Source of the DNA: a virus
IMG/VR virus record: IMGVR_UViG_3300026097_000805
Coordinates: 32,001-96,000 of that record
Length of the DNA: 64,000 nucleotides
Reading direction: 5' to 3' (one strand)
Part shown: one piece after another, positions 1 through 19,096 of the stretch
Layout of the letters: each line of letters starts with the position of its first letter
How positions within the stretch are numbered: position 1 is the stretch's first letter
The notes under the pieces: generated by a model
What the model was told of the DNA's origin: nothing
The model's input: the letters and a program-made list of their open reading frames with translations, nothing else
Database searches by the model: none
Position numbers and translations under genes: made by a program

Positions 1-214
1 CTTCCTCTTGCCAACAGCGTGTACAGCCAGGATGCCGCTCACCGGCAATCATTGATTTTCTTACAGCAGACATTTTTTCGTTGTTAAAATTAAGATCAAT
101 GTCGCCTTCTAACTGTCCGAGATTGCCTTGAAAACGGCAACAGGGTTTTACTCTCCCAGAACCATCAATAAACTGATGATTCCAAATCATCGAACATAAG
201 GTATCTTTTGCCAT
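1..214 (-). CDS. Twitch/SPASM-domain radical SAM protein, N-terminal part (runs off window start)
   Basis: Not in ORF track. Manual translation MAKDTLCSMIWNHQFIDGSGRVKPCCRF...HPGCTRCWQEE has the same C..W/CC/CxxC N-terminal pattern as ORFs 2583 and 6649. Confidence 0.8.
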   Translation of the reverse strand, partial: MAKDTLCSMIWNHQFIDGSGRVKPCCRFQGNLGQLEGDIDLNFNNEKMSAVRKSMIAGERHPGCTRCWQEE

Positions 215-226
215 AAATATATTTAT
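213..226. promoter_or_regulatory. Back-to-back TAAATA late-type promoters forming a perfect 14-bp palindrome
   Basis: ATAAATATATTTAT lies between divergent genes: TAAATA on + at 214-219 and on - at 225-220. Confidence 0.6.
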
Positions 227-253
227 ATACGCACTTAATAATGAGATATCACA

Positions 254-1453
254 TTGAAACCTGTAGCAAGTTATTTTAAGCACAATCCAACCGGGGCATT
301 TAGTGTTGATTGGTACATAGGGAAACGCTGTAATTTCAGTTGTTCTTACTGTGTTGACTATCTGCATGACAATCATTCCCCTCATGTTCCCTATGAAAAC
401 ATGCGGGCCCTTGCTGACACTATCATAGACGCCCACGGCATAAATGTTTTTTGGAGCCTCACGGGCGGTGAACCCACTATCAATCCAGATTTCATGAAAC
501 TGTGTAAGTATATCAAACATGAGCGGGGCGCAAAACATGTTAGTCTAACCACCAACGGCAGCAGAACAGCAGCCTATCTCAAAGAGCTATATCAGTATTT
601 AGACGGTATAACACTTAGCTTTCACTTTGAACACATGAAACATCGTATTGATGAATTCATAGACAAATGTATTCAACTAGAAGATTGGCGCAGGCAGTGG
701 AATGCGGAGCAGGAAGCAAGCAACAACAAGTTTCCAGACTGGGACACAGGTTATATCAAAAAAACACTGATACTTAGATTCATGGTTTATCCAGGACAGT
801 TTGAAAATGTTGAACGCATGGAACAGGCATTTCGCGATCACGGCATCACTAACATAGAACACCGTTATATTCGTCCGCCAGGCGGCAACTCTAACGAATT
901 ATTGCCTGATAAGAAACTAGATTTTAAAACCAACAATGATACAGAATCAAAATACAAACTGTTGAGCAATGCTGACCAGACAGATATCAAAGCTATCGAA
1001 ACCAGAGAGAAAAAGTTTTATCGAGAAGGTGAACAAGAAAAAATCAAACAATTGTACGAAAACAAGATAACTCCAGACAAACGCAAATTAAAGTTTTGGT
1101 TCGACAACGACGGTGATCTAGTTGATCAAGATTTTCATTACAATGAACTAAATTTTGACAAGAAAAACAACTATGAAGGTTGGTTATGCTGGGCTGGGGT
1201 AAAACATTTGAAAGTGACACCCACAGGAGATATCTATATAGGAAGTTGTCATGTGGGAGGCAAGCGTGGTAATATATATGATAGCGGCAGCATTGATTTG
1301 CCAACTGAACCGATTCGTTGCCCTAAATGGCGCTGTACTGATAACCTAGATCTCAAAGTACCAAAGATTCGAGATTGGGAATATTACCATCTAGTTAAAG
1401 ACATGATAGAGTGGAAAGATTCTACGGATTCAATAGATATTGACAAACTATAA
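254..1453 (+). CDS. Radical SAM protein with C-terminal SPASM/twitch-like Cys region
   Basis: CNFSCSYC (CxxxCxxC), TGGEPT, TTNG, C-terminal WLCWAG...SCH...CPKWRC; TTG start. Confidence 0.9.
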   Translation: MKPVASYFKHNPTGAFSVDWYIGKRCNFSCSYCVDYLHDNHSPHVPYENMRALADTIIDAHGINVFWSLTGGEPTINPDFMKLCKYIKHERGAKHVSLTTNGSRTAAYLKELYQYLDGITLSFHFEHMKHRIDEFIDKCIQLEDWRRQWNAEQEASNNKFPDWDTGYIKKTLILRFMVYPGQFENVERMEQAFRDHGITNIEHRYIRPPGGNSNELLPDKKLDFKTNNDTESKYKLLSNADQTDIKAIETREKKFYREGEQEKIKQLYENKITPDKRKLKFWFDNDGDLVDQDFHYNELNFDKKNNYEGWLCWAGVKHLKVTPTGDIYIGSCHVGGKRGNIYDSGSIDLPTEPIRCPKWRCTDNLDLKVPKIRDWEYYHLVKDMIEWKDSTDSIDIDKL

Positions 1454-1468
1454 AGAATATGTTATATT
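1440..1468 (+). promoter_or_regulatory. sigma70-type promoter; transcript probably leaderless
   Basis: TTGACA(1440-1445)-17 nt-TATATT(1463-1468); ATG at 1475 follows 6 nt later with no SD. Confidence 0.75.
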
Positions 1469-1474
1469 AATAGT

Positions 1475-2590
1475 ATGAATGAAAATTTAAAATGGTCCAA
1501 CTATGACTTCACTAAAATACCACTTGATGACATTGTCAGTGTTGGTCAACGCACTTTGCTTTATCGTGATCTTTTTACTGTATCGTGGTTGCTTGGAAGA
1601 TTCTGTAATTACAGATGCTCCTACTGTTGGCCATATGCCCGTTCCGACCGTAAAGACCATAGACCTACCGAGCTCTGCTTGCGCACAGTGGATGAAATTA
1701 AACGTCAAGCCAGACTCAACGGCTTCAATTCTTTCCACTTCTCCCTGTCAGGAGGAGAACCTACTTTCCATCCTGGCTACTTCGACATTTTAAAACATCT
1801 AGCTCAAGATATCGAAAACACAAACTACACCAGTATTCACATGACTTCTAACTGTAGTCGTAAAATGAAATGGTTTGAAGAGTATGTAGAGATAGCAAAG
1901 TCCTTTCACAGAGCTAGTATTACAGCAAGTCTACATACCGAACATGTAGACAACAAAGAAAAAATGCAGGAGTTTGCGGATAAACTTATTCTCTGTCAGG
2001 AAAATGATGTACAAATTACTATTAACATGGTCATGGTCCCAGAATGGTTTGATCGAGATTGGGAAAACGCTCTTTTCTTCCACGAGCAAGGAATAAACGT
2101 CACCCTTAAACCACAGAGCGATCCTACAGCGTCCAGAGTCGTAGAGGGCTACACAGAAGAACAGCTACAAACACTCTACAACGGAATGCCACAGCGAGGA
2201 TATACTGACGTAAAACGCAAGTGGGCAAATAGACCCAAACCAAACTTTCAAATACCCAAAGGAATAATGGGAAAAAATGATGCTAGTGTTCCGTGGAACA
2301 TGCAGGTTGAGCTTGAAGACTCTCAAGGAGAAAAATGGTATATGGATCAAGCAGAACGATTCAATGCCTTTAATTTTAACAAGTTTACTGACTGGAGTTG
2401 TAATGCTGGATATCAAGGCATAATTATAAGAGAGCCTGACGGAAATATCAAAAGGTCCTATAGCTGTCACGACGAACCCTTGGGTCATATTGAGACTGGA
2501 TTTACTTTGTTTAAAGAACCCAAGAAATGTATAACACCTAGTTGTGTAAGCAGTGCCGATAGCAAAATACCAAAGAGAAAATATGGGTAA
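1475..2590 (+). CDS. Radical SAM protein (paralog of 254..1453)
   Basis: CNYRCSYC, SGGEPT, WSCNAG...SCH...CITPSC. Confidence 0.9.
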   Translation: MNENLKWSNYDFTKIPLDDIVSVGQRTLLYRDLFTVSWLLGRFCNYRCSYCWPYARSDRKDHRPTELCLRTVDEIKRQARLNGFNSFHFSLSGGEPTFHPGYFDILKHLAQDIENTNYTSIHMTSNCSRKMKWFEEYVEIAKSFHRASITASLHTEHVDNKEKMQEFADKLILCQENDVQITINMVMVPEWFDRDWENALFFHEQGINVTLKPQSDPTASRVVEGYTEEQLQTLYNGMPQRGYTDVKRKWANRPKPNFQIPKGIMGKNDASVPWNMQVELEDSQGEKWYMDQAERFNAFNFNKFTDWSCNAGYQGIIIREPDGNIKRSYSCHDEPLGHIETGFTLFKEPKKCITPSCVSSADSKIPKRKYG

Positions 2591-3776
2591 AGCAAAAATA
2601 ACCAGCAAAAATAAAGATACTATTTGTACATTTCCGTGGGAGATGTATAGCATAGACACGGGCTTTGGGTGGTATCGTTCCTGTCCTAGAATACCCTATC
2701 AAAAACTAGAAGACTTGGACTTTCACAATCATGGTAAAATTGTTGATTTAAGACAAGGGTTGCGAGACGGTGTAAAACACGACCTTTGTAAAGATTGCTG
2801 GTATGCCGAAGACAACGGCGCAAAGAGCTACAAACAAGTTTTAAAAACTAATTACGCCTACAAAAACAGCGATCAAGATTATGTCGCACATCCTAGAATA
2901 TTAGAAGTAAAGTTTAGCAATCTTTGTAATTTAAGATGTATTTTTTGTAGCAGTAAATGTAGCAGTCTATGGGAAGATGAACAGCCTATTACCGAGGATA
3001 TGTTAGGTTCTAAAAAAGGTGCTGAAGTTAATACAGCCCTATTAAAGTACATTAACGAAAACTATAAAAATCTTGAGATGTTTCAGTTGTTTGGCGGCGA
3101 ACCAGTACTACACAAAGAGTTCAACGATATATTTGACATTATTCTTAAAAAGCCAGAAAGTGACGGGCAAAAAGAAATTAGTTTCAGTACCAATCTATAT
3201 TACAACGACACATACAGGAAAAAATTCGAAGATAACATAAAAGGTTGCCTAGATAAAGGTCATAAGATCTATATGCGAATGAGCATAGACGGTGTATACA
3301 ATCAAGGAAAATATCTAAGACAAGGAATTGACTGGAGCGTATTTGAAAAGAATCTAGACAGTTTCATGGACAAGTTCCACGACTGGCCCAACTTTGGTAG
3401 GCTTAGATGTAATATTGCTTTAAATGCCACAAACATAATGTACTTAGATACAATCATGCACTATCTCAATGATAGAGGTTTAGATAATGTAGAACCGCAT
3501 TATAATTATGTTAGTAATCCTAAATACTTTTATGTTCAAACATATGGCACTCGTTTACAACAAGCTATAGATATTATCAAATCCCAAGACTATAGAATCT
3601 ATGACAAATATAAAACTCATGTATTGGATCTACTAGGTAGCATGGTTCATTTAGAACCACAGACTGATGTAATTGAGCAAGGAAAAGACTGGCTAAATAC
3701 ATATGATATTAAAACCAATCAGAACTTTTTAGAAGTTTTTCCACTTAATAGGTATATGTTTGATGATAGATTGTAG
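2583..3776 (+). CDS. Twitch-domain radical SAM protein
   Basis: N-terminal CTFPW...CKDC, then CNLRCIFCSSKCSSLW and FGGEP. Start moved from 2553 to ATG 2583, which overlaps the upstream stop. Confidence 0.9.
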   Translation: MGKAKITSKNKDTICTFPWEMYSIDTGFGWYRSCPRIPYQKLEDLDFHNHGKIVDLRQGLRDGVKHDLCKDCWYAEDNGAKSYKQVLKTNYAYKNSDQDYVAHPRILEVKFSNLCNLRCIFCSSKCSSLWEDEQPITEDMLGSKKGAEVNTALLKYINENYKNLEMFQLFGGEPVLHKEFNDIFDIILKKPESDGQKEISFSTNLYYNDTYRKKFEDNIKGCLDKGHKIYMRMSIDGVYNQGKYLRQGIDWSVFEKNLDSFMDKFHDWPNFGRLRCNIALNATNIMYLDTIMHYLNDRGLDNVEPHYNYVSNPKYFYVQTYGTRLQQAIDIIKSQDYRIYDKYKTHVLDLLGSMVHLEPQTDVIEQGKDWLNTYDIKTNQNFLEVFPLNRYMFDDRL

Positions 3777-5205
3777 TCTAGTAGCAATTCCTCCCCTTGT
3801 TCTAAATGGACCTCCTATTGGAATTGCCTTACTCAAAGCACTTGCTGAAGAAAATGGCTATAAGTGCCAATGCTTTAATCCGAGTATTGACGTCTGGGAA
3901 AAACTAGAAAAGAATGAGAAAAGAACTTGGCCATATACACGCTTTACAAAAGAGTTTGAAGAAAAATACGATGTAGATGCTTGGGTAGCAGAGATAGTTG
4001 ATAACGCTTTGGCTCCTAATCCAAAATTCATAGGACTGTCATCGCATACCTGGAGCAGTGAATATTTTTTATTGAAAATTTCAAAACGATTCAAAGAAGT
4101 TCGTCCTGACCTAAAACTAGTATTAGGCGGTGCCGCAGCCATGGAACTTTTTGATACTGTGAGAAAACACAATGATATAGATTATATTGTGGTAGGCGAT
4201 GGCGAAAAAGCATTTTTAAATTGTTTGGAAGGCAAATTTGATTTTGAAGGACTTAACACAAAGGTTTCTCATTCTCTAAGTCCGGAAGAATTTAATAATT
4301 TACCATATCCAGATTTTAGTGATTTAAGGGTAGATTGGCACAAAGCAAAAAACCCTAAAGAAAACAGAATATATCTCATAGGCAGCAGAGGTTGTGTGTA
4401 TAACTGTAGTTTTTGTAATGTGCCTACAATGATGAAATATCGTTTCAAAGACGGAGCAAAATTTGCTCATGAAATACGCCACATGCAGAATCTATACACG
4501 CCTACCAATATTGAATTTGGCGACAGCTTAATTAATGGAAGTCTTAGAGAATATAAAAAACTTATATATACGCTAGCAGAATTAAACAAACAAGATCCTG
4601 TTAACAAACCAAAGATAGTCAGTTTCTATAGAATTAGACCAGAAGCACAAAGTCCTGAAGAAGACTTCAAAGCCGCAGCTGAAGCAGGATTTTACAGATT
4701 TAAAATAGGTGTGGAAAGCGGAAGCGATCAAGTTAGAAGTCACATAGGTAAACAAGAAACCAACGAGGACATAGAATACACCCTTAGAATGATGAAGAAG
4801 TATGGCATCAACGCTAACTTATTAATTATTGTTGGATACCCTACCGAAACAGAAAAAGATTTCCAAGAAACACTCGACATGCTTCAGATGATGGTGGATA
4901 CAGGGTTAGACAGTGTTGTTGACAGAGCAGTTGTAAACGAACTATATATCAGCACTGGTACACGCATAAGTGAGCAGATAGATGAGTTGGGCATTAGAGA
5001 TGCCTATGGCAGCGCAGAAGAAAAAATGAGTAGACCGTGGAGTGTGACTCTGCCTAACGGTGAAATCATTGACGAGGAAGTGCGAGAACGCAGACTACAC
5101 ACTGTGCTAGACTTTATTGAAAACAAGTTTCAAAATGCGCAAAACCTCATGGTTTTTAGCGGCAAGGAGGACAGCAGCCGCAACAGGGAAGGTGACAAGA
5201 CCTAA
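3760..5205 (+). CDS. Cobalamin(B12)-binding radical SAM protein (class B methyltransferase-like)
   Basis: N-terminal PPIGIALL, IGLSS, LVLGGAAA, VVGDGE B12-domain pattern; SRGCVYNCSFC; IGVESGS; IVGYPTET. Confidence 0.88.
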   Translation: MMIDCSLVAIPPLVLNGPPIGIALLKALAEENGYKCQCFNPSIDVWEKLEKNEKRTWPYTRFTKEFEEKYDVDAWVAEIVDNALAPNPKFIGLSSHTWSSEYFLLKISKRFKEVRPDLKLVLGGAAAMELFDTVRKHNDIDYIVVGDGEKAFLNCLEGKFDFEGLNTKVSHSLSPEEFNNLPYPDFSDLRVDWHKAKNPKENRIYLIGSRGCVYNCSFCNVPTMMKYRFKDGAKFAHEIRHMQNLYTPTNIEFGDSLINGSLREYKKLIYTLAELNKQDPVNKPKIVSFYRIRPEAQSPEEDFKAAAEAGFYRFKIGVESGSDQVRSHIGKQETNEDIEYTLRMMKKYGINANLLIIVGYPTETEKDFQETLDMLQMMVDTGLDSVVDRAVVNELYISTGTRISEQIDELGIRDAYGSAEEKMSRPWSVTLPNGEIIDEEVRERRLHTVLDFIENKFQNAQNLMVFSGKEDSSRNREGDKT

Positions 5206-6107
5206 TGTGGCCTTACAGCGCAGATCAAGTTGAAAAACTACATCTTGAAACTGGCACCTTTTGTAATCTAGAGTGTCCAGGTTGTCTTCGCACATTTGAT
5301 AACACCGCACAATCGCACCTAAATACTAATTTTCTTACATACAAAAAAGTATCCACATGGTTTCAACCCAATGTATTACCGTCAGTAAACAAAGTAATAT
5401 ATAGCGGGCAGATTGATGAGCCTGCTGCTAATCCAGAAATAAAAGAAATCACAGAATATTTTCTTGACAATTGGAGCCTTAAAGTTCTAATCATGCAGAG
5501 TCACGGAAGCATACGAACCGAAAACTTTTGGACCGAACTAGGCAATCTTAGTAGAGAGTCAGGTCATATTTTTAGAGTAGAATTTAGCATAGACGGATTG
5601 GAAGACTCAAATCATATCTACAGACAAGGCAGTAATTGGCACAGAATTATAAACAATGTTAACGCATACATACAAGCAGGCGGCTATGCCAGCTGGAAGT
5701 TTATTAAATTCAAACACAATGAACATCAAGTGGATCAAGCACTAGAACTTAGTAAGAAGCTAGGCTTTAAACAGTTTGTGACCGTTGACAGTGCTAGGCC
5801 TTCTAGCAAGGAAATAAATACACCTTTTGATTTTAAATCCAACGACAGTGTTAAATGTAGAGCATTTGACGACAAATGGTTGTATGTTCACTATGATGGT
5901 GTTTTACAGCCTTGTTGCTACTTTGGATATGACGAACGCAGTGACGATCCAGAAGATAATTTAAACCACAACACCATAGATAATTATTTTAGTAATAGTA
6001 AATTTTTACATGATCTACAAGATGGTTGGGATACTCCTAGCTGTAATCCAAGATGCTATACCAAATGTAAATTAAATTTACGAGATAACAGGACGGTATA
6101 CGAATGA
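5205..6107 (+). CDS. Radical SAM protein with C-terminal SPASM/twitch region
   Basis: CNLECPGC, FSIDG, C-terminal VKC...PCC...CNPRCYTKC. Confidence 0.88.
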   Translation: MWPYSADQVEKLHLETGTFCNLECPGCLRTFDNTAQSHLNTNFLTYKKVSTWFQPNVLPSVNKVIYSGQIDEPAANPEIKEITEYFLDNWSLKVLIMQSHGSIRTENFWTELGNLSRESGHIFRVEFSIDGLEDSNHIYRQGSNWHRIINNVNAYIQAGGYASWKFIKFKHNEHQVDQALELSKKLGFKQFVTVDSARPSSKEINTPFDFKSNDSVKCRAFDDKWLYVHYDGVLQPCCYFGYDERSDDPEDNLNHNTIDNYFSNSKFLHDLQDGWDTPSCNPRCYTKCKLNLRDNRTVYE

Positions 6108-6649
6108 TAGAAATCTATGACAACTTTTTGGATGAAAAAGTCTTTAAACAAGTTCAACAAGAAGTTCTTGGTTTGAGCTATGAGCCTATACAACACGGCG
6201 ACGATGTAGCATATAAACTAGACAGCGGTACAATTTATAAAACCAAACACAAACAGTGGTCAGATAACCCAACAGCACTACAGGTGTTTTTTGATGCTAT
6301 GGCACAACAAGATTTTCTTCCATCTGATGTATTTTCTATTATGGTTCATGTTTACGAACCAGGAGCAGAAATCAGTTGGCACAGAGATTATGCCTCACTT
6401 GCTTCATATTCTTTTTATATACACGACGAATGGCGCAGTGAGTGGGGAGGACAGTTAATGGTCACAGATTCTTCAGACCGCCACGGAAATAACGGCAATG
6501 TTTTTGACCACAGGCAAGATGTTATGACACCCGGTGTAGGACAATACTATGAACCTATTCCTAATAGACTTGTGATTATAAAAGACTGTCTACACAAAGT
6601 AAACCGTTGTAATCACAGACGCACTAGCCTTACAGGATTTTTCAAATAA
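6104..6649 (+). CDS. 2OG-Fe(II) oxygenase (prolyl-hydroxylase-like)
   Basis: HRD...W..EWGG.L...PNRLV...LHKV...R.SLTGF: HxD...H facial triad plus the conserved Arg. Confidence 0.85.
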   Translation: MIEIYDNFLDEKVFKQVQQEVLGLSYEPIQHGDDVAYKLDSGTIYKTKHKQWSDNPTALQVFFDAMAQQDFLPSDVFSIMVHVYEPGAEISWHRDYASLASYSFYIHDEWRSEWGGQLMVTDSSDRHGNNGNVFDHRQDVMTPGVGQYYEPIPNRLVIIKDCLHKVNRCNHRRTSLTGFFK

Positions 6650-7689
6650 TGGCTTACTGCATGGCACCTTTCAGAAATGTCTACATCAACAACGGCAAAG
6701 CACGGCCCTGCTGTTGGTATGAACGCAGAGAACTCACTAACAAAGTAGACAATCTTATTGAAGTTGTTGATGTATTCAACAGCAATGAATTTGATGCGAT
6801 AAGAAACAACCCCAGCAATAAACCCAGCGGATGTTGGAAGTGTCAGATGCATGAAGACAATGGCGGCGTTAGTCATAGGATGCTATGGAATAAGCGCGAA
6901 AAGGATAACGGAGATGTCAAGCTGACTGATTTAGATATCTACATGGGCAATCTTTGTAATCTTGCTTGTGTGACCTGTAGCAGTCACAACAGTTCTAAAT
7001 GGATCGCTGAAGAAAAACAAATTTATGGATCCAGCTTCAAAGACAAGCAAGACGACATAGACATCAATCTCAACTGGGAGTTGGTAAAGGATTTAAAACG
7101 AATCAAACTAGCTGGAGGGGAAGTCACACTCATGCCCCATCACGAACCATTTTTACAACAGTTGATTGACTTTGATGTGGCAAAAAATATCACCCTAGTT
7201 TATATTGTCAACAGCACACAAGATCCTAGAAAGTTTGAAAATTTGTGGAGCAAATTTAAAAACATAGAATTTATAGTAAGCCTAGACGGTGTTGGCGAGC
7301 TCAGTGACTATATTAGATATCACAGTGATTGGAATACCGTAAGCACAAATATTATTCGCGCCACAGAAATGGGCATTCAAATCAGTGCCAACAGTGTGGT
7401 TAACATTTTGAATGTATACCATTTGCCCGAAATACTGGAGTGGTGGAAACACAAAGGCAGTGTGCTATGGCGCATTTTAGATTATCCGCAACCATTGAGC
7501 ATTGTCAATCTCAAGCCCGAACACAAGGATCTTGTGGCAGAGAGATTGAAAGACTATGATGAGCTTGCGCATGTGATAGAACACATGTACAAAGAACAAG
7601 GCGACTGGAATAGCTTTGTAGATTGGATCACTCCTATAGATAACAACAGAAAGTATAACTGGCAACAGTTTAATCCACAATATGTCTGA
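6649..7689 (+). CDS. Twitch-domain radical SAM protein
   Basis: YCMAPF...PCC...CWKC, then CNLACVTCSSHNSSKW and AGGE. Confidence 0.9.
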   Translation: MAYCMAPFRNVYINNGKARPCCWYERRELTNKVDNLIEVVDVFNSNEFDAIRNNPSNKPSGCWKCQMHEDNGGVSHRMLWNKREKDNGDVKLTDLDIYMGNLCNLACVTCSSHNSSKWIAEEKQIYGSSFKDKQDDIDINLNWELVKDLKRIKLAGGEVTLMPHHEPFLQQLIDFDVAKNITLVYIVNSTQDPRKFENLWSKFKNIEFIVSLDGVGELSDYIRYHSDWNTVSTNIIRATEMGIQISANSVVNILNVYHLPEILEWWKHKGSVLWRILDYPQPLSIVNLKPEHKDLVAERLKDYDELAHVIEHMYKEQGDWNSFVDWITPIDNNRKYNWQQFNPQYV

Positions 7690-8344
7690 ACCACAAGTAA
7701 TAGATTTATTCGACAGCGAAGAGATTACCTATCTAGCAGAAGTTAGGCACAAGTATCCGCTGAAAGAAAAAATGAGCGGGACTCGCAACTGGCAATGGAA
7801 ATCGCATGACGAAGTCTGTCATTTCCTATTAGAAAAACTTGATCCATACATAGGCAAGTGCTTTAGACATGGTGGGAACTATTTTGAAACACCCAATCCC
7901 TTTCATCCGCACACAGACACTACCAAACAATCAGAGTTTCCAAATAGCCAACCATATAAGAATGTTGTAATACCTCTAACAGAAAACCCAAATATATACA
8001 CAGTGATTTTTGAACAAAGATGGACAGGACCAGCCAGTCATTTTTGGCAGGGCAGTCTGTTCGGATATCTTCCAGATCCGCTGTACAATGAAAGGAAAAC
8101 AGATCTAATTGGTGTAGAAAATGTATGCGATGAACCTTTTCCTGTAGAAGATTATATGAAGTATCTTACTCACCTACCATATGAAAGTTTACAAGGGTTC
8201 AGCATACTGGGAGCATACCCTTGGAAAATAGGGCAAGCATTGATATTTGATTGCCAAAACATACATTGCGGAAGCAACTTTAGACACCACGGAATAAACA
8301 ATAAACTAGGACTTAGTCTTTTTACTAGCAGATATGTGGAATAA
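7682..8344 (+). CDS. Putative 2OG-Fe(II) oxygenase
   Basis: FHPHTD...WKIGQALIFDCQNIH: HxD...H in a beta-helix-type context. Confidence 0.65.
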   Translation: MSEPQVIDLFDSEEITYLAEVRHKYPLKEKMSGTRNWQWKSHDEVCHFLLEKLDPYIGKCFRHGGNYFETPNPFHPHTDTTKQSEFPNSQPYKNVVIPLTENPNIYTVIFEQRWTGPASHFWQGSLFGYLPDPLYNERKTDLIGVENVCDEPFPVEDYMKYLTHLPYESLQGFSILGAYPWKIGQALIFDCQNIHCGSNFRHHGINNKLGLSLFTSRYVE

Positions 8345-8861
8345 ATTTCAAACAACACACCCAGGTGTAGGCACACTAGTAGATGTCTACATCGACGAGG
8401 ATCAGCAATACATCAAACGAATATTTGATGCTGACTCAATTACCTGCGACGGTAAGCCCAATCGTTTTAACCAATCTCAGGTTAAAGAATTTTTTGAATG
8501 GGAGTGCTATTGGCTAAACATGTTTAAACACAGTGAATGGGTGCCAGAGTTAATTGAAATAGGCGAAAACTATACCATTCAAAAATATTATAGATCATGT
8601 GTGTTAGATGACCTACATGTAAATATGCCAGACATCACAGATCAAATTGTAGAAATGTACAAGTTCTTTAAAACACAAAAAGTATTTAAACGCAACGGCA
8701 GTTTAAGCAATCTTACCCTTAACGGAGATAAGTTGATTGCGTTTGATTTTAAATGGGCAAGGCCCCGACCAGTGGGTATTAACATGGAACTTAAAAGTTA
8801 TTCACAATGGCTCAACAAGGCTGATCCCACTGTTGAACAGAAATTGTTGGATCTACTATGA
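8334..8861 (+). CDS. Protein-kinase-like fold small protein
   Basis: KRIF, E-helix (EFFEWE), VPELI, KRNGSLSN loop, AFDF metal-binding motif. Confidence 0.55.
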   Translation: MWNKFQTTHPGVGTLVDVYIDEDQQYIKRIFDADSITCDGKPNRFNQSQVKEFFEWECYWLNMFKHSEWVPELIEIGENYTIQKYYRSCVLDDLHVNMPDITDQIVEMYKFFKTQKVFKRNGSLSNLTLNGDKLIAFDFKWARPRPVGINMELKSYSQWLNKADPTVEQKLLDLL

Positions 8862-9697
8862 TAACATACAGAGCAATAGCAGTAAATGATCCAGAAGTCA
8901 AACTAACTATAGAGTCTGTTGATCTACACAATTTCATATATAGTAAGCCGGATCTAGGCGCATTTGTAGAACAATATAGATCATGGTTAGATGAACCGCT
9001 CAATGACTGGCAGGCTTTTGTCACAGACGGAGTCACAGGTGCTTATGATAACTTTGAAAGAGAATATCCCCATCTTCAAACAGTGACATTCAAAGGCGAG
9101 TATCCATATCATCGCAGTTTAGGTGCTGAATGCGTTAACCTAGAACAACTACAAAAAGGCATGAAGTTGGTCATAAGCGATCCATGGGCGGCCACAGGAT
9201 CAAGGCATGAACAGCTCGCAGATATATATCGTGTGTGTAATCAAAAACAAATACCTGTTTTCCTAGATAGGGCATTTTATGGAGCAGCTACCACTGAATT
9301 GTACATAGACGAATGTGTCACGCACATTGCCTACAGTTTCAGCAAAGCATTTTACACAGGGCGTGTAAAAACAGGCATATGCTTTACCAAACAACACACA
9401 GTATCTCCTATGCGGGTATTGAATGAATATGCTTATGTAAACAGTGTTGGGCTAGGACTTCACAAGGTGTTAATGGAAAAGTTTCACAAGTTTTACATAC
9501 ACAATACCTATCGAGATGCGCAATTGGATTATTGTAAAAAGTTGGATATTACGGCCAGTGACACTGTGTTTCTAGGATATACATTTGATGGCAAATACAA
9601 AGGCTTCAATAGAGAAGGCACAGCCAACAGAATATGTTTCAGTAATATATTCAACACAGATATAGATATAACAGCAGTGCCTTGGGAAACAAAATGA
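8858..9697 (+). CDS. PLP-dependent enzyme (aminotransferase fold type I-like)
   Basis: VFLDRAFY (D-x-A-Y-like) and YSFSKAF..GRV (PLP lysine motif). Confidence 0.7.
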   Translation: MITYRAIAVNDPEVKLTIESVDLHNFIYSKPDLGAFVEQYRSWLDEPLNDWQAFVTDGVTGAYDNFEREYPHLQTVTFKGEYPYHRSLGAECVNLEQLQKGMKLVISDPWAATGSRHEQLADIYRVCNQKQIPVFLDRAFYGAATTELYIDECVTHIAYSFSKAFYTGRVKTGICFTKQHTVSPMRVLNEYAYVNSVGLGLHKVLMEKFHKFYIHNTYRDAQLDYCKKLDITASDTVFLGYTFDGKYKGFNREGTANRICFSNIFNTDIDITAVPWETK

Positions 9698-10125
9698 TAG
9701 TCAGACAGATTGAGTTCGAAACACTTAAAAATTATTGGATCGAAGTAGATCATTTTAAAGATCCTAACAAGCGCATTGTGGAAGTTATAAGGCGTCTAGG
9801 ACCGCATACAACGACCTACAGCGACCCTCGACGCATAGCCTATGGGCTTTATGACGATCACAAACTCATAGGTGCTACACAGCTAGTACAGTGGAGTGCT
9901 ACACATATACGATATAGAACATTAAATATTAGAAAAGAATATAGAGGACAAGGACTAGGTTGGAAACTTTTACAATCAGCATATGAACAGGATTGGCTAG
10001 GCAAAGGAAATTTGTTTGGATGGATAAGAGACACACATTATGATTGGGCTCTAGCACATGGATTTACAGATTTAGATGCGGAGTGGACAGAAGATCATAT
10101 TGCTATGGAAAGGAAGATGACGTGA
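9694..10125 (+). CDS. GNAT family acetyltransferase
   Basis: LNIRKEYRGQGLGWKLL acetyl-CoA motif A; ATGA overlap supports start 9694. Confidence 0.85.
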   Translation: MIVRQIEFETLKNYWIEVDHFKDPNKRIVEVIRRLGPHTTTYSDPRRIAYGLYDDHKLIGATQLVQWSATHIRYRTLNIRKEYRGQGLGWKLLQSAYEQDWLGKGNLFGWIRDTHYDWALAHGFTDLDAEWTEDHIAMERKMT

Positions 10126-10685
10126 ATGTAGAACCTTTAGAATATAATTTTGACATACAACAATTAAAAGATGAATGTGAAAATTTAATCAGCACTGTTG
10201 GATTACACAAACATCATAATCAAATCAGTCTCAAACACACCGCTGATGAACTATTAGATAATCCATGGTACCAAGGCTGCGGCAGTTTAAAATATAAATT
10301 TGGCGAGGACTTTATAGACCAAAATGGTAATCTCAAAGAATCTGAAGCCAAACTAGAACAGAGTGATTTTACTAGATTAAATAAAGTACTCACAGGTACA
10401 TATCTAGAAGAAGTACATGATACGGTTGCTCAAGAATACAAGTTTGGACGAATGAGACTAATGGCAATGCCGCATAAAAAATGCATGAGCATACACACTG
10501 ATACAAGCAAGCGTATACATATACCTATAATAACCAATGAAAACTGTCTAATGATAATAGACAATAAAGTGTATCATATGCCTGCCAACGGCAATGCTTA
10601 TTTAACAGATACAACAAAGCCGCACACTGCTCTTAATGCTAATCACAGTTTTATGCGGCTTCATTTATTATTTGATTTATTTTAG
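10122..10685 (+). CDS. Aspartyl/asparaginyl beta-hydroxylase-like 2OG-Fe(II) oxygenase
   Basis: RMRLM..L....SIHTD...RIHIPI...HMPANG.AY..DT.KPHTALN; GTGA overlap supports start 10122. Confidence 0.8.
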   Translation: MNVEPLEYNFDIQQLKDECENLISTVGLHKHHNQISLKHTADELLDNPWYQGCGSLKYKFGEDFIDQNGNLKESEAKLEQSDFTRLNKVLTGTYLEEVHDTVAQEYKFGRMRLMAMPHKKCMSIHTDTSKRIHIPIITNENCLMIIDNKVYHMPANGNAYLTDTTKPHTALNANHSFMRLHLLFDLF

Positions 10686-12163
10686 CTAACAGCATAAGCA
10701 GGCACTACATAATCTGTACCGTCTACATTAATTTTAAAATATGTTGAAGGAGTAGCAGGAAGTGCATTTGCTCCTCCAGCTGCACCAACAGTAGATTGTG
10801 TAGGTACATTTAGCTGGACAGTGCCGGTGCCGCTAGTACGTAATTCTAAATTCGCATTTGAAGATGTTGTAGAAATATAGTTATCATCTATAAGTATTTC
10901 TTCTGCTTGGATAGACCCGGTAAATATTGCATTTCCTCGAACATCTAGTTTAGCAGTTGGGGTATATGTACCGAATCCAAAATTACCTTCTTTGAGTGTA
11001 AAGTATTTTGATTCGTCACTGATAAGTGCAGTTTGAGTATCATGAGCCATACGCATATCTGCTGAACGACCACGAATTGTACAATCTGACCTATCTGTTG
11101 TTGAATCTTCGTATCCAAAATTAATTGACCCATAGTAGCCGCTATAAGATGAAAGGTCTCCTGTTAGATCGACTGTGTTGATATTGACCCTAGATCTTGT
11201 TTGTTTACTTTCGATTCTAAGGTCTAAAATATCTCCGTTATCGGGGCGTGTAATTGTGACTCTAGCTGTATCTGAATTTTTTGGAAGTATTTCAAGTATA
11301 TTAAGACTACTATTTGCGGTATCTAATAATAGCGCATCATCCTGGTGATATATAAATCCATTAACATTTCCTCTATATTCTCCTGTTGGAAAATCAAATA
11401 CTTTTACACCACTTTGATCAAATATATTAGCATGTAAAGGGGCATTTAATTTATTATCAACACCGTCTACTAATAACGTGCTGTCGTCACCAAAAACACT
11501 ACCTACTAGTTCTCCCACTACATTACCAGTTAAAGTACCGTTTAACGTATTACTCACTGCGTCAACAAGTAGTGTGCTGTCGTCACCAAACACAGATCCA
11601 AGTACATCGCCTGTATGAATCCCAGATGTGTTTCCTACGACATTTCCTGTAAATGTTCCTGTAAGAGATTCTGCTCTTAAATTACCAGTGCTAGAATCAA
11701 AAACAACAGTGCTATCGTCACCTATTAAATTTGCATTTATAGAAAGTGCATTTATTTGACCGTCGGCTACTATACTGTGAGCATATACATTGCCCCATCT
11801 TCTAGATAGACTTCCTAAGTCGAACGCAGAATCATTAGTAGGTGTAAGATTGGACCCAATTTGACCGCTTACAATAATATTATCTTCTACACCGTCGCCT
11901 AAATTGATATTACCTGTTGCTGTTATAGTTCCATCGATATTAATATTACCAGTGCCTGTAATATTATTGCCATTTAGATCTAAGTTGCCGCCTAGTTGCG
12001 GTGATGTATCGTCGACAAGGTCGCCACTAATTAATGTACCACCTGCTGTAGTACCATCGCCGATATAAACTTCTTTAGTATCGGTAACATATAATAATTC
12101 GCCTTCTATAGGCGTTATACTTGATCTATCTGCTTCTAAACCACGTCTAATTTGTAGGGCCAT
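10682..12163 (-). CDS. Tail fibre / receptor-binding-like virion protein
   Basis: N-terminal MALQIRRG...GEL.Y.TDT.E.YIGDG (Mtd/hyaluronidase-like fibre N-terminus), DTSPQLGGNLDLNG, Gly/Asn/Thr-rich repeats. Confidence 0.75.
   Translation of the reverse strand: MALQIRRGLEADRSSITPIEGELLYVTDTKEVYIGDGTTAGGTLISGDLVDDTSPQLGGNLDLNGNNITGTGNINIDGTITATGNINLGDGVEDNIIVSGQIGSNLTPTNDSAFDLGSLSRRWGNVYAHSIVADGQINALSINANLIGDDSTVVFDSSTGNLRAESLTGTFTGNVVGNTSGIHTGDVLGSVFGDDSTLLVDAVSNTLNGTLTGNVVGELVGSVFGDDSTLLVDGVDNKLNAPLHANIFDQSGVKVFDFPTGEYRGNVNGFIYHQDDALLLDTANSSLNILEILPKNSDTARVTITRPDNGDILDLRIESKQTRSRVNINTVDLTGDLSSYSGYYGSINFGYEDSTTDRSDCTIRGRSADMRMAHDTQTALISDESKYFTLKEGNFGFGTYTPTAKLDVRGNAIFTGSIQAEEILIDDNYISTTSSNANLELRTSGTGTVQLNVPTQSTVGAAGGANALPATPSTYFKINVDGTDYVVPAYAVS
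11478..11722. repeat. Three-copy coding repeat (GDDST unit) in the fibre gene
   Basis: GTGCTGTCGTCACCAAA at 11478-11494 and 11574-11590; GTGCTATCGTCACC at 11709-11722. Confidence 0.8.
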
Positions 12164-12218: not shown

Positions 12219-12530
12219 TCATTTGCGTTTTTTCATAAAGATATGCGTTCTGCTTTTGATATCTTGCTTTACCTTTTCAGTGTCCAATCGAAAATCTATA
12301 TTTACAATTACATCTTCATAAACTTCCAACAAGTCCTCTATAGCAGATTCTATATCTACTTCAGGTTTTTCTCTAGAAGATTTTACATCTACATCCCAAA
12401 CCTTGCCATCTTCAAATTCTATACGAACAGAATCTAAATACTCAATAGGTATAACATCAATATTAATTTCATCGAATACCTCCGGCCAGTGATCTATTAC
12501 ATCTGGTGGCAGTTTTTTATTTTTAGGCAC
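12219..12530 (-). CDS. Hypothetical phage protein
   Basis: 103-aa ORF, tightly packed. Confidence 0.75.
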   Translation of the reverse strand: MPKNKKLPPDVIDHWPEVFDEINIDVIPIEYLDSVRIEFEDGKVWDVDVKSSREKPEVDIESAIEDLLEVYEDVIVNIDFRLDTEKVKQDIKSRTHIFMKKRK

Positions 12531-13143
12531 TCTCTGTTTTCTTTGTTGTTTTTTTCTTGGTCGGGCTAAGAGTTTCGGCTTCTTCTCTTAGTCTTTTTGC
12601 TTCCTTAAACATAGCATCTGCTTGTGAACGATATTGAGCCGCAAGTGCTTCGTCGGTAATAACTCCATCGGCACTAGCTTCGGTAGGTGATTTAGTGTAG
12701 TCAGCAACCGGATCGGCTGTAGGTTCTTCTACAGGCGCTTTTACTGTTTGTCCATCTGGACCTTTGATTGCTAACTCGTCAACAGTAAGACCTCGCTGTT
12801 CTGCAATTAAGTTATTCAACTCAGATAACATAACCTTTGTTTTGTTGTCAGGAGTCATCTCAATTGTATTAGTTGGAAACTTTCTAAGCTTGCCTGTTGT
12901 ATGGAATCCTGCTAGCATATTTCTACCATCAGGAAGTGTAGCTCTTGCCATTGCTTCACCAAACTCATATGCTTCTTGACCTGCCGCTGATTCTACAGCT
13001 TTAATCAAAGCATCGTGTTCTCCTGCATCTAGATTTTCTGTTTGTACAACTAAGCAGTGCTCTGGCTCACCAGGTACTACTCTATATGCTACAATTACTT
13101 TTCTTTGATTAGCCGCAATGCGGCCTACATGTTTTAGTGCCAT
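12523..13143 (-). CDS. Hypothetical phage protein
   Basis: 206-aa ORF with SD (GGAG). Confidence 0.8.
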   Translation of the reverse strand: MALKHVGRIAANQRKVIVAYRVVPGEPEHCLVVQTENLDAGEHDALIKAVESAAGQEAYEFGEAMARATLPDGRNMLAGFHTTGKLRKFPTNTIEMTPDNKTKVMLSELNNLIAEQRGLTVDELAIKGPDGQTVKAPVEEPTADPVADYTKSPTEASADGVITDEALAAQYRSQADAMFKEAKRLREEAETLSPTKKKTTKKTESA

Positions 13144-13146
13144 TTT

Positions 13147-13383
13147 TTATTCTCCTTGTGCTTGTCCTTGTTGAGATGCAACAGCGTTTAGGAATAGTTC
13201 TAGCTTGTTATAAGTTGTTCCTATCACAGCCATTTCGTTTGGCTTAAACGCACCTCTGCTACTTGCAACATCAATAATTTGCTTAATAGCACTAAGATCT
13301 GTCACAGTAAGTTCAGGTGCTTGCTCGGTTTGAGATGCAGACTGTTCAACTGATTGTGTCTCAACTGCTTGTTCTTCACTCAT
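13147..13383 (-). CDS. Hypothetical phage protein
   Basis: 78-aa ORF with AAGGAG SD. Confidence 0.8.
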   Translation of the reverse strand: MSEEQAVETQSVEQSASQTEQAPELTVTDLSAIKQIIDVASSRGAFKPNEMAVIGTTYNKLELFLNAVASQQGQAQGE

Positions 13384-13412
13384 TTATTATACTCCTTTTT
13401 AAGTGTCATGTG

Positions 13413-13418
13413 TATTTA
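13413..13418 (-). promoter_or_regulatory. TAAATA late-type promoter
   Basis: TTAAATAC at the upstream stop, about 30 nt before start 13383. Confidence 0.5.
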
Positions 13419-13700
13419 ATTGTATTTTAAGTGTGGACATGCCAAAGTGAAATAAGAACATTCTTTTGGCTCTTCAAATCCAACCTTCATTACTGTATCT
13501 ATATTACCGTCATTTGACAAGTGTACAGCTTTGCCTAAATAATACCTACCCTTTAAATTCTCAGTAATCCATTTAACTAGGCTTTGCTCTAAATTATATG
13601 TAATAGGTATGTGAATATATTCAAAATGAGAGCAAGGCACCTCTTGGCGCCTTATCTCAAAAAAGTTTAAAGGGTTTGGGTCTTTATGTCTCTGCATCAC
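13416..13700 (-). CDS. Hypothetical phage protein
   Basis: 94-aa ORF, ATGA-type overlap with the upstream gene. Confidence 0.7.
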   Translation of the reverse strand: MMQRHKDPNPLNFFEIRRQEVPCSHFEYIHIPITYNLEQSLVKWITENLKGRYYLGKAVHLSNDGNIDTVMKVGFEEPKECSYFTLACPHLKYN

Positions 13701-15022
13701 GCCTCGTCATAGTGTGCTGTCTGTCCAAATGGTGCCTGCAAGTTCTTATCATGGTGACTGTGAATAACAAATACTGTATCGCAGTAGTCATCTTCTCCCC
13801 AGCTATCCCAAGCATACCCGTCTGTAAACATAAGGAACTTCTTAGGCTGGATGTCGTTCTCACGCATATACTTCCAGTTCGCCATAAAGTCAGTGCCACC
13901 ACCGCCTTTGATTTCATATTCCATCAAGTCGCGTCCGTCGTCAGCACTAAAGTCATCTTCACCATATACTTCTGTGTCAAAGCACCAAATCTTAATCTTG
14001 TAGTCTTTGTACTCGTCCATAATGCCTTTTACTTCTCCCAAGAAGTCTTCGGCTTGTGCATTACCAATACTGCCACTCATGTCAAGTGCAATGCAAATAT
14101 CAATAGTTTCGTCAAAATTCATACCAGGCAGTACTGCACCGCTCATCTGACCCTTTCGACTAGGGCGACTAAACGTATAGTCGCTTTTGATAGTACTCTG
14201 GATTTGTTGACGCAACAGTTCACGCCAGTTCATTTTAGGCTCAGTAAGCTCTTTGATCATACGCTGAACGCCTGCAGGAACATTGCCTGCGCCAGCGGCT
14301 TGTGCGGCATTAATTGTAGCTTCTTTGATCTCGTCTTTGATCTTTTTCAATTCTTCTTTAGAATATTTAGCAGGCTTTTTGCTGACATTATTGCCGTTGC
14401 TGTCTTGGCCTTCTTCACCATCTTCGCCTTCACCATCATCGCCTTCGTTGTCGAGGTGCTCGTCCAGCATTTCGCCTTCTTTATCTAGTTCTTTTAACAA
14501 GTCGGCAAGTTCTTTTCCTTGCTCTTCGACCTGCTTAAATAGTTCGTCGTACACTTCCTCTGAAGTCCATCCTTCGTATTTAAAATCTTGGAAACAGTCT
14601 ACAATCTTAGGTGTTTCTCCAATACGATCGCGTACAAGTGTGTTGTTTACAATATAGTCCGCCGCAATATTGTACAGCATGGGACTCCGGTCATCTCTAC
14701 GTCCTAAGTGATCAAACACCATATGCAGAATTTCGTGAGCAACAACAAATTCAATTTCTTTGTTAGACATTGCATTAAAGAACTGTGTGTTATAATACAA
14801 ATTGCGTCCGTCTACAGCGGCAGTAGGCAACCAATCGTCTGCTGCCAAAATACGTAAGCGTGTGGCCATATTACCGAAGAAGGGATGACGCAATAGTAAG
14901 CCTACTCGTGCAACAATAATACGATCGAGTACTTCTACACGCATTTCTTCTAGCTGTTCTTCTGTAATGTTAGGATCAGGTTGCCAGTTTTTAAGTTTAC
15001 TTGCGGTATCTTTAGCTGCCAT
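13697..15022 (-). CDS. DUF2201-like metallopeptidase + vWA domain protein
   Basis: PTAAVDGR, HEILH (HExxH), acidic linker, IALDMSGS (MIDAS DxSxS), GGGGTDF, TDG. Confidence 0.88.
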   Translation of the reverse strand: MAAKDTASKLKNWQPDPNITEEQLEEMRVEVLDRIIVARVGLLLRHPFFGNMATRLRILAADDWLPTAAVDGRNLYYNTQFFNAMSNKEIEFVVAHEILHMVFDHLGRRDDRSPMLYNIAADYIVNNTLVRDRIGETPKIVDCFQDFKYEGWTSEEVYDELFKQVEEQGKELADLLKELDKEGEMLDEHLDNEGDDGEGEDGEEGQDSNGNNVSKKPAKYSKEELKKIKDEIKEATINAAQAAGAGNVPAGVQRMIKELTEPKMNWRELLRQQIQSTIKSDYTFSRPSRKGQMSGAVLPGMNFDETIDICIALDMSGSIGNAQAEDFLGEVKGIMDEYKDYKIKIWCFDTEVYGEDDFSADDGRDLMEYEIKGGGGTDFMANWKYMRENDIQPKKFLMFTDGYAWDSWGEDDYCDTVFVIHSHHDKNLQAPFGQTAHYDEA

Positions 15023-15054
15023 GTTGCACCTTTATTGCTAGTTTCTATAGTATA

Positions 15055-15083
15055 ACTATAACATTATTTACAGGGTTTGTCAA
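15055..15083 (-). promoter_or_regulatory. sigma70-type promoter with TAAATA embedded in the spacer
   Basis: TTGACA-aaccctgTAAATAatgt-TATAGT, 17-nt spacer. Confidence 0.75.
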
Positions 15084-15088
15084 CCGAG

Positions 15089-15122
15089 AAAAGAAAAAGT
15101 GGGCCCATAAGAGCCCACTTTT
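15089..15122 (-). terminator. Rho-independent terminator after the MoxR ATPase gene
   Basis: AAAAGTGGGC-ccataaga-GCCCACTTTT stem (15095-15122); T-rich tail on the minus strand. Confidence 0.8.
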
Positions 15123-15128
15123 GGAACA

Positions 15129-16208
15129 TTATGCAGACTGTGCTGCCTTAATGTATTTGCCATAACGCTCGTGGAACTCGTCAAAACACTCCACTTCGTC
15201 TGGATCAATGGGCAATTGATACTGGGTAAGTGCAAGTTTAATGCCCATAACTACTAGTTCAGTATCAAAATTGTCCATTGCAAAGCGCAAGAAGTTATTA
15301 ACTTTATCGTCGAACTTCTTGTCGCCGTTATCGCAGGCTTCTTTAAGTTCGTAGCAGAGTGAGACAGTTAAGGAATACATAGCACTGATTTCTTTTGCCT
15401 TCATCTCTTTTACTTTGCCTGCAAGAATATCAGTTGGATTAGGCATACTCGCCGCTACTTTACGGTGAGCCATAAACTTCACAGCCAAACCCTCGCCAAC
15501 CGAACCGGACACAAGATCAGTAGTAGTATTTTCGTCTAGCTCGTCCTCGACTAATTCGCTTACAAAAGACCAGGAACGAGGTGTTGCAAACGAACGACTT
15601 GGGCTCTTAGGATCAAAATCGTACAAATCCTTCTTACTAAAAGTAAGGAACCCTACTACATCTTTGTGAATATTATTATTAACTGCCCACTGGAACCAGT
15701 CGTCAAAGTCAACACGCATTTCCAAGTGTACAAAGCGGTTAGCCAACGGAGCAGGCATACGATATGTGACTCCTTTGTCAGCTTCGCGATTACCTGCCGC
15801 AACAATATAAACATTGTCTGGCAAGTGATACTGTCCTACCTTGCGGTTAAGAATCAACTGATATGCTGCCGCTTGTACAGCAGGTGCCGCTGAGTTCATT
15901 TCGTCAAGGAAAAGCACAATAGCTTCATGTTGTGTTGCCATTTCTGTGTCGGGCAGTTCTGCAGGAGCACCCCATACCATTTTGTTAGCATTACTATCAA
16001 AGTAAGGAATGCCTTTAATGTCAGTAGGCTCCCAAAGTGACAAGCGAATGTCGATAACATGTGCATTAATAGTGTCGGCAATCTGATGAACAATGTCAGA
16101 TTTACCAATACCCGGAGGTCCCCAAAGAAAGATAGGACGTTTTTTAGCAATAGCGTGTTTAATAGAAGCCTTTGCGGCATTTGGGCTTACAGTACGTGCA
16201 GTATCCAT
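15129..16208 (-). CDS. MoxR-like AAA+ ATPase
   Basis: GPPGIGKS Walker A, LFLDE Walker B, AAGN, APLANRF. Confidence 0.9.
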   Translation of the reverse strand: MDTARTVSPNAAKASIKHAIAKKRPIFLWGPPGIGKSDIVHQIADTINAHVIDIRLSLWEPTDIKGIPYFDSNANKMVWGAPAELPDTEMATQHEAIVLFLDEMNSAAPAVQAAAYQLILNRKVGQYHLPDNVYIVAAGNREADKGVTYRMPAPLANRFVHLEMRVDFDDWFQWAVNNNIHKDVVGFLTFSKKDLYDFDPKSPSRSFATPRSWSFVSELVEDELDENTTTDLVSGSVGEGLAVKFMAHRKVAASMPNPTDILAGKVKEMKAKEISAMYSLTVSLCYELKEACDNGDKKFDDKVNNFLRFAMDNFDTELVVMGIKLALTQYQLPIDPDEVECFDEFHERYGKYIKAAQSA

Positions 16209-18707: not shown

Positions 18708-19096
18708 GATACTGAACTACGTCCTTTGTCTATTGGTACTACATTAATATAACCCATTTCCCGCTGTGTGTCAAGTCCTTCTTCTTCCAACATCTGAACG
18801 ACAATGGTGCGGAACCAAGCATCTACAATTTCTTCGTTGCTTTCTCCGCTATAACCTGCATCTAATAGCTGTTCAATAAACTCATTGTTCCAGTCGAGTT
18901 CAAAGAAGCCGTTTCGGATATTATCAGGATTTACCTGTGTGTCTAATACAGCAACCCATGGTTCACCTGCTTCAGTAGCAGCCGCTTTGTCTGCATCTAG
19001 TGCCTCGCGACGAATTTGTTCTGAAGTCTTCTCAATAGGTTCTTCAACTTGCTCTTGCGTCTTCTTATCTCTTACGAGTTTGTTCCACCAACCCAT
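18704..19096 (-). CDS. Hypothetical phage protein
   Basis: 130-aa acidic ORF with AGGAG SD. Confidence 0.75.
   Translation of the reverse strand: MGWWNKLVRDKKTQEQVEEPIEKTSEQIRREALDADKAAATEAGEPWVAVLDTQVNPDNIRNGFFELDWNNEFIEQLLDAGYSGESNEEIVDAWFRTIVVQMLEEEGLDTQREMGYINVVPIDKGRSSVS
18746..18774 (-). promoter_or_regulatory. sigma70-type promoter for rnh (inside the upstream gene)
   Basis: TTGACA-cacagcgggaaatgggt-TATATT, 17-nt spacer. Confidence 0.7.

Follow-up and report, generated by a model that had tools for sequence, protein, structure and literature searches.

A 22-gene array of radical SAM enzymes in a large marine phage: a possible system for glycan editing

INTRODUCTION

What is made by a phage that carries a long, tightly packed run of genes for modifying enzymes? 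This question is raised by a stretch of 64,000 nt (hereafter 'the window'), positions 32001-96000 of the 179,647-bp IMG/VR virus record IMGVR_UViG_3300026097_000805. At the left end of the window (positions 1-10685), genes of radical S-adenosylmethionine (SAM) enzymes, abbreviated rSAM, lie among genes of other tailoring enzymes, and the original prediction had taken this block for an operon of 12 genes with seven rSAM enzymes. We found that it is in fact only the end of an island that is 42.7 kb long and holds 22 rSAM genes. The record has a CheckV completeness of ~50%; its source is a large marine T4-like phage, the genome of which we estimate at roughly 350 kb. We suggest, with a probability of about one half, that the island assembles a glycan and radically edits it, possibly on a virion protein, e.g. 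the neighbouring tail fibre.

RESULTS

Extent and composition of the island

The block at window 1-10685 makes up the 3′ quarter of the ~43-kb island; 32 kb more are situated upstream of the window. The map of open reading frames (ORFs) has 43 + strand genes plus one minus-strand gene at record positions 7-42685. Among 41 scored + strand junctions 34 are overlapping, and just two gaps are longer than 30 bp. As the left edge of the island is the end of the contig, the island may be longer still.

A Pfam search produced 23 matches to PF04055 in the record, with 22 of them inside the island, where they span 3.9-39.4 kb; 16 of these 22 are above the Pfam cut-off. The CxxxCxxC motif is kept in all 22 ORFs. 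The original prediction had proposed to classify each rSAM enzyme with hidden Markov models; such models, together with alignments, resolved four groups: 13 proteins of NF033640, six of a second family of the auxiliary-cluster kind, two of a third family and one protein with a B12-binding domain. The other island genes include two GT-A-fold glycosyltransferase-like genes, a UDP-sugar dehydrogenase, a class I methyltransferase, a pyridoxal phosphate (PLP) enzyme, a GNAT and Fe/2-oxoglutarate (2OG)-type hydroxylases. PHROGs gave no match for ten island proteins of unknown function, and NCBIfam nothing useful for ten; homologues of a 391-aa protein (record 10600-11775) have no Pfam domain.

That this is phage DNA, as predicted, is supported by the T4-type DNA polymerase, exonuclease and AAA proteins encoded in the window. 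In relatives, genes of RegA, gp45, gp44 and ribonucleotide reductase adjoin the rSAM arrays.

Families of radical SAM enzymes

NF033640 is the NCBIfam family N_Twi_rSAM, 'twitch domain-containing radical SAM protein', with a curated cut-off of 170 bits. All 13 island copies match the full model with 212-419 bits, and four N-terminal cysteines, CxxxCxxC and a GGE motif are invariant across the 13 paralogues. Positions 7-102 of the N_Twi profile were aligned to residues 165-262 of BtrN, its twitch domain, with an E-value of 1.5e-6. By these features the auxiliary Fe-S domain of N_Twi proteins is of the twitch type and precedes the rSAM core; binding of a cluster by this domain is predicted. In the six proteins of the second family CxxxCxxC lies near residue 20, and four cysteines are conserved towards the C-terminus; a C-terminal cysteine cluster, with cysteines invariant in the family alignment, is also present in the third family. 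Searches of the PDB by sequence profile gave only generic rSAM matches for the second and third families.

The profile built from the 13 N_Twi paralogues was searched against 1.84 billion representatives and matched 8,422 representative clusters (50% identity) at E <= 1e-30. Among metagenomic proteins of 770-1400 aa, many are tandem fusions of two or three complete N_Twi_rSAM units (P0209-P0239). Scores above the NF033640 cut-off were seen in none of 14 model genomes, and no close relative was found in the species genomes scanned with a conserved N_Twi paralogue (record 21734-23131). Our literature search found no account that describes rSAM arrays in phages or the function of NF033640, and no characterised member of this family.

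Age and conservation of the array

A tree of 226 N_Twi proteins places 11 of the island's 13 paralogues in clades of their own, together with orthologues from 3-47 other loci. Only the pair 15948/17297 resembles a recent duplicate. The paralogues are 19-52% identical; with this divergence and the separate orthologue clades, recent tandem amplification is rejected as the origin of the array.

The N_Twi paralogue at record 21734-23131 has counterparts with 64-86% identity in 53 IMG/VR contigs, and it is present in Tara and other marine assemblies as well; with the gene at record 18492-19565 it forms a conserved pair of N_Twi enzymes. The 27 related IMG/VR contigs that were tested have 2-25 rSAM genes each, 25 of these contigs having six or more; examples are 25 rSAM genes on a 76.8-kb contig and 18 on a 275-kb contig. 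One relative, contig G001 (36.8 kb, 20 rSAM genes), is collinear with the island and has the same convergent fibre gene at the end. In comparison with G001 the ratio of non-synonymous to synonymous substitution rates (dN/dS) is 0.04-0.26 for 11 of 16 orthologue pairs with estimable dS, dS being saturated; these values support purifying selection acting on the island. Gene shuffling, decay and loss of CxxxCxxC had been named in the original prediction as signs that would speak against a maintained pathway. The observations go the other way, with the motif retained in 22 of 22 genes, low dN/dS and gene order shared with G001. Given the separate orthologue clades, the low dN/dS and the collinear conservation, the enzymes of the array are old and each has been maintained individually; the array neither arose by recent amplification nor is it decaying.

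Among GenBank phages there are distant relatives only, at 21-25% identity: Vibrio phages K566/K567 and Ralstonia phage RsoM2USA; in the latter the genes of the context are annotated as hypothetical proteins throughout. In two loci a TctA-family transporter gene directly follows the rSAM array (L014:20726-21416 and L015:20702-21416); these loci are on metagenome contigs of 78 kb and 258 kb that could be phage or cellular.

Sugar-related genes in the island

Several genes of the island point to sugars. A UDP-glucose/GDP-mannose dehydrogenase is encoded at record 12387-13628. Across 55 related loci the commonest non-rSAM families are a ~300-aa protein (65 copies in 45 loci) and a ~230-280-aa protein (52 copies in 50 loci), neither of which had a match in the PDB by sequence profile. 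The ~300-aa family has two + strand copies in this phage, at record 2539-3459 (306 aa) and within record 13648-15273. The model of the 306-aa protein, with a predicted local distance difference test (pLDDT) value of 89.7, has a GT-A fold. Its VIA-align Z-scores are 10.2 for each of B4GALNT1 and the STIV A197 glycosyltransferase and 9.0-9.3 for ThuS/SunS; the top Foldseek matches are the peptide S-glycosyltransferases SunS and ThuS and the PBCV-1 capsid glycosyltransferase (A64R). A D-x-D motif (D64, D66) is invariant in the family. By the fold of the model and by this motif, the 306-aa protein is a predicted GT-A-fold glycosyltransferase (GT2-like). The match to the Glycos_transf_2 Pfam model in this phage is weak (12.7 bits, E 0.0097, record 14593-14796); among homologues in 28 relatives the cut-off of the GT2 model was reached in two, with seven more weak matches. 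A canonical GT2 glycosyltransferase (63 bits) was also seen, on the minus strand at record 173580-174050, outside the window and far from the island.

The ~230-280-aa family is represented in this phage at record 15260-15961. Its model (pLDDT 89.6) has at least 500 PDB methyltransferase chains as matches at E < 1e-3, and on this structural likeness we assign the protein as a class I SAM methyltransferase with a Rossmann-type fold.

The arrays of relatives (e.g. L014:5694-7193) add a NodU/CmcH-type carbamoyltransferase, a SIS-domain protein, an APS kinase, a nitroreductase and a nucleosidase-family gene, PNP_UDP_1. None of these five was found in the record of this phage, nor was a flavodoxin. 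The PNP_UDP_1 gene might serve in clearance of 5′-deoxyadenosine, a by-product of rSAM enzymes.

The fibre gene beside the island

The right-hand neighbour of the island is a convergent gene of a tail-fibre-like protein with an Mtd_N domain (window 10682-12163, minus strand; PF18454, 44.7 bits). Besides this phage and G001, 11 of 28 relatives have a convergent Mtd_N gene at the 3′ end of the array; these 11 are all the relatives with an Mtd_N gene on the contig, and a different arrangement was seen in none of the contigs examined. A substrate encoded outside window 1-10685, in agreement with what had been predicted for the block, is supported, and the Mtd_N fibre is our best guess for a candidate acceptor.

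Genes of the 3′ block

All 12 consecutive + strand genes reported for window 1-10685 are present as ORFs; of their 11 junctions 10 overlap and one is a 21-bp gap. The count of seven rSAM genes also stands, with six on the + strand. The seventh is an N_Twi_rSAM, the only minus-strand rSAM gene of the island (record 31093-32214; NF033640, 324 bits over record 31102-32205), of which the first 71 codons are in the window (1-214). By family alignment its start is the ATG at record 32214, and the SPASM match seen in the window fragment corresponds to the N-terminal twitch domain. Its start and the divergent start of the next gene are 39 bp apart (window 215-253).

This next gene, with an apparent TTG start, encodes a third-family rSAM protein (254-1453, +; PF04055, 54.5 bits; CNFSCSYC at residue 26). 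It is followed by its third-family paralogue (1475-2590, +; PF04055, 58.7 bits), which is 85% identical to the G001 orthologue. The protein encoded at 2553-3776 (+) is an N_Twi_rSAM, with the N-terminal twitch preceding the rSAM core; it scores 212 bits with NF033640 in comparison with the cut-off of 170 and retains every invariant cysteine and the GGE motif of the N_Twi alignment. The rSAM protein with the B12-binding domain, of class B type and methylase-like, is at 3760-5205 (+; PF02310, 45.3 bits with a cut-off of 32.1; PF04055, 72.1 bits); its best NCBIfam match is TIGR03975, an rSAM C-methyltransferase for maturation of RiPPs (peptides made by the ribosome and modified after translation), at 103.3 bits, below the cut-off of 281.85. 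A short second-family rSAM protein (5205-6107, +) has CNLECPGC at residue 20 and five other paralogues. One more N_Twi_rSAM is encoded at 6649-7689 (+; NF033640, 253.7 bits; G001 orthologue 65% identical).

Three 2OG oxygenases had been proposed. Two of them are identified by Pfam: a 2OG-Fe(II) oxygenase at 6104-6649 (+; PF13640, 42 bits with a cut-off of 27) and, as the last gene of the island, an Asp/Arg beta-hydroxylase-like cupin oxygenase at 10044-10685 (+; PF05118, 38.7 bits with a cut-off of 22.6). The third is probably the protein at 7682-8344 (+), which has no Pfam, NCBIfam or PHROGs match; by motifs it is a probable Fe(II)/2OG-type oxygenase, with H77, D79 and H195 (HxD...H) invariant across six homologues. 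The assignments of this protein and of the products of the next two genes come from alignments to their homologues in related contigs. The gene at 8334-8861 (+) encodes a small protein that likewise has no match in Pfam, NCBIfam or PHROGs. The kinase-like motif for which it had been named is there (NGSLSNLTL...AFDF), but in the homologue alignment Ser is at the position of the catalytic Asp. A short fold-type-I PLP enzyme, aminotransferase-like, is encoded at 8858-9697 (+): the PF00155 match is weak (25.6 bits), SxSK (K163) and D137 do not vary among 15 homologues, and profile searches of the PDB with the family gave marginal aminotransferase matches only. The GNAT acyltransferase (9682-10125, +) matches PF13508 and PF00583 above their cut-offs and is 78% identical to its G001 orthologue (BLASTP). 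The PLP enzyme and the GNAT agree with the original prediction. Pfam found no transporter, regulator or precursor peptide in the block, in accord with the description of it as consisting of modifying enzymes only.

Outside the island there is one more rSAM match, the 23rd, at window 19169-20065 on the minus strand (record ~51.2-52.1 kb), with a weak QueE-like match (25.6 bits); PF01702 (TGT) had no match in the record. At window 13697-16208 (minus strand), 3 kb from the island, a DUF2201 metallopeptidase/VWA-like protein is encoded beside a MoxR-type AAA ATPase (PHROG 1297).

DISCUSSION

A possible route of glycan editing

A glycan was one of several products listed in the original prediction, which chose none of them. 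The context now points to sugars, given the GT-A family, the UDP-sugar dehydrogenase and the GT8 genes of phage K566 (see below), and from this context we infer a sugar as the substrate. The divergent GT-A (GT2-like) transferases would attach sugars from nucleotide-sugar precursors, for which a UDP-sugar 6-dehydrogenase is present; in relatives, SIS, carbamoyltransferase and APS kinase may feed the same sugar supply. The attached sugars would be edited position by position, each old rSAM paralogue being specific for one position or one sugar. All 22 rSAM enzymes are expected to have an auxiliary Fe-S domain, with a BtrN-like twitch shifted to the N-terminus in 13 of them; each enzyme would act by abstraction at a particular sugar C-H, resulting in oxidation, epimerisation, deoxygenation or C-methylation, the last being a likely task of the single B12 enzyme. 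Hydroxyl, amino, acetyl and methyl groups could be provided by the Fe/2OG-type hydroxylases, the PLP aminotransferase-like enzyme, the GNAT and the class I methyltransferase. The acceptor would be encoded outside the island and could be a virion protein such as the adjacent fibre.

A number of considerations weigh against this reading. The nucleotidyltransferases MobA and IspD share the GT-A fold, with Z-scores of 8-9, and Foldseek TM-scores of the GT-A-like model are low, 0.2-0.36. A canonical nucleotidyltransferase, flippase, polymerase or lipid-carrier transferase was not found in the island, and about ten island proteins have no detectable family. No NF033640 member has a known substrate; because none is characterised, the assignment to sugars is drawn from gene context alone. 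Adjacency of the fibre gene is weak evidence, T4-like genomes being strongly syntenic. Finally, rSAM enzymes are oxygen-sensitive and 2OG oxygenases need O2, thus joint action of both on one substrate is puzzling.

Other explanations

The strongest competitor, one that we still consider unlikely, is protein or peptide maturation of a RiPP-like kind. The rSAM enzymes would then act directly on amino-acid residues, either in a phage protein or in a precursor with its gene elsewhere, making cross-links, epimerisations or C-methylations, and further tailoring of the peptide would fall to the oxygenases, the PLP enzyme and the GNAT, as in proteusin (polytheonamide) clusters. It is true that peptide maturation is what SPASM/twitch rSAM enzymes are best known for, that secondary NCBIfam matches of the island proteins are to the maturases PapB, StsB, SkfB and mycofactocin (all far below the cut-offs), that the best match of the B12 enzyme is a RiPP C-methyltransferase model (103 bits) and that the top Foldseek matches of the GT-A protein are S-glycosyltransferases of peptides. 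However, neither a precursor peptide nor a RiPP recognition element (RRE) was found behind the analogy with RiPP clusters that the original prediction had drawn. A search for short precursor ORFs, as it had advised, revealed nothing precursor-like in the few intergenic gaps of the island, although a precursor could be encoded elsewhere; PF05402 (PqqD/RRE) had no match in the 180-kb record while control genomes were positive, although divergent RREs could escape the model. A leader peptidase and an exporter were not found in the island either. Genes of sugar enzymes and glycosyltransferases appear in the context again and again. In 36 of 55 related loci the island core includes a highly conserved protein of 74 aa that was considered as a precursor; yet it is conserved over its full length and has no Cys. 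As a precursor in this phage it is ruled out, being absent here. Its gene lies between the methyltransferase and a second-family rSAM gene (L014:8673-8897 on the + strand, L061:8674-8898 and 34 more loci), and in this phage the slot is filled by two N_Twi rSAM genes.

Next in order of plausibility, and in our judgement also improbable, is a role other than virion decoration: production of a diffusible small molecule (aminoglycoside-, nucleoside- or sugar-derived) or remodelling of the host envelope (lipopolysaccharide, capsule) during infection. The known sugar-acting rSAM enzymes BtrN, GenK and AprD4 belong to pathways of aminoglycoside and nucleoside antibiotics, and it is the BtrN twitch that is matched here; such pathways typically have genes of a carbamoyltransferase, an aminotransferase-like enzyme and an acetyltransferase. 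As to the envelope, the Asp/Arg-hydroxylase family includes the lipid A hydroxylase LpxO, and ~2 kb from its rSAM/GT8 cluster phage K566 has a gene with the annotation PagP (lipid A acylation; L070:16865-17314). Against both variants, no exporter, resistance gene or lipid-carrier enzyme is seen in the island, and its conserved place beside the fibre gene would be left unexplained. Hypermodification of phage DNA, i.e. sugar or amino-acid adducts on bases, seems to us very improbable. Clusters for thymidine hypermodification reportedly have a gene set with kinase, PLP enzyme, rSAM and acetyltransferase, to which the 3′ end of the island (kinase-like, PLP, GNAT) is similar, and T4-like phages do glycosylate their DNA. 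Characteristic of such clusters are a 5-hmdU DNA kinase and an amino-acid:DNA transferase beside PLP and rSAM enzymes; in the Pfam, NCBIfam and PHROGs searches no family match spoke for a DNA-acting enzyme. Still, no known pathway of DNA modification comes near a number of 22 diverged rSAM genes, the kinase-like protein (8334-8861) is deprived of the catalytic Asp, DNA-binding or base-exchange enzymes were not detected in the island, and in this phage the island is tied to the fibre gene rather than to the replication module.

Implications

If the island does edit a glycan, one could speculate that N_Twi_rSAM is a large unrecognised class of radical carbohydrate-editing enzymes and that big aquatic phages use arrays of 10-25 such enzymes to rewrite a virion-attached glycan one position after another; we offer this generalisation tentatively and regard it as doubtful. 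Were it true, sugar structures would result that have no equivalent in the glycobiology of cells, and diversification of the arrays from phage to phage would serve as a device of host range or anti-recognition. Roughly one eighth of the estimated genome is devoted to 22 oxygen-sensitive radical enzymes. A product decorating the tail fibre or the capsid would have a bearing on host recognition by large marine phages or on their escape from recognition. One solved N_Twi reaction would annotate thousands of genes and would probably reveal new radical chemistry of sugars or proteins. The version with four enzymes in the cultured Vibrio phages K566/K567 makes the question testable at the bench.

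Comparison with known systems

The island's 13 members of NF033640 match the full model of the family; what sets them apart is that they sit side by side as old paralogues. BtrN, the butirosin 2-deoxy-scyllo-inosamine dehydrogenase, is the prototype twitch rSAM enzyme, and its auxiliary-cluster domain is homologous to the N-terminal domain of N_Twi proteins. The substrate of BtrN is an aminocyclitol, a sugar-like ring. However, the twitch of BtrN is C-terminal, while in N_Twi proteins it precedes the rSAM core, and the likeness is limited to the twitch domain and the generic core.

Proteusin (polytheonamide-type) clusters are similar to the island in that rSAM enzymes, B12 C-methylases and a 2OG hydroxylase load many modifications on one substrate. 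They do so with a few iterative enzymes, an adjacent long-leader precursor and a protease, whereas the island has 22 separate rSAM enzymes, and no precursor or RRE was found. The role proposed for the island resembles that of PBCV-1 A64R of chloroviruses and of the fibril glycan clusters of mimivirus, where virus-borne GT-A transferases and sugar-tailoring enzymes serve virion proteins. Glycosylation in chloroviruses and mimivirus employs conventional sugar enzymes; we know of no such system with radical SAM chemistry, let alone with 20 or more rSAM enzymes.

A parallel among cultured phages is in Vibrio phages K566/K567 (GenBank OZ196521, OZ196593), where, as here, a single operon-like block in the genome of a large T4-like phage contains N_Twi-type rSAM genes. 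The K566 block has only four N_Twi-type rSAM genes (two above the cut-off), with the 21-25% identity given above being to the two island rSAM proteins queried. These genes alternate with two canonical GT8 genes (47 and 33 bits; cut-off 24.3) and a weak GT4-like gene, in the place of which the island has its divergent GT-A family. The block genes of K566/K567 are annotated as hypothetical or generic rSAM, and we found no published function for them. The present analysis adds an array of 22 rSAM genes (13 of them N_Twi), the folds of the core families, a test of the paralogues by orthologue clades, the anchoring of the 3′ end at a fibre gene and a GT8-interleaved cluster in a cultured phage.

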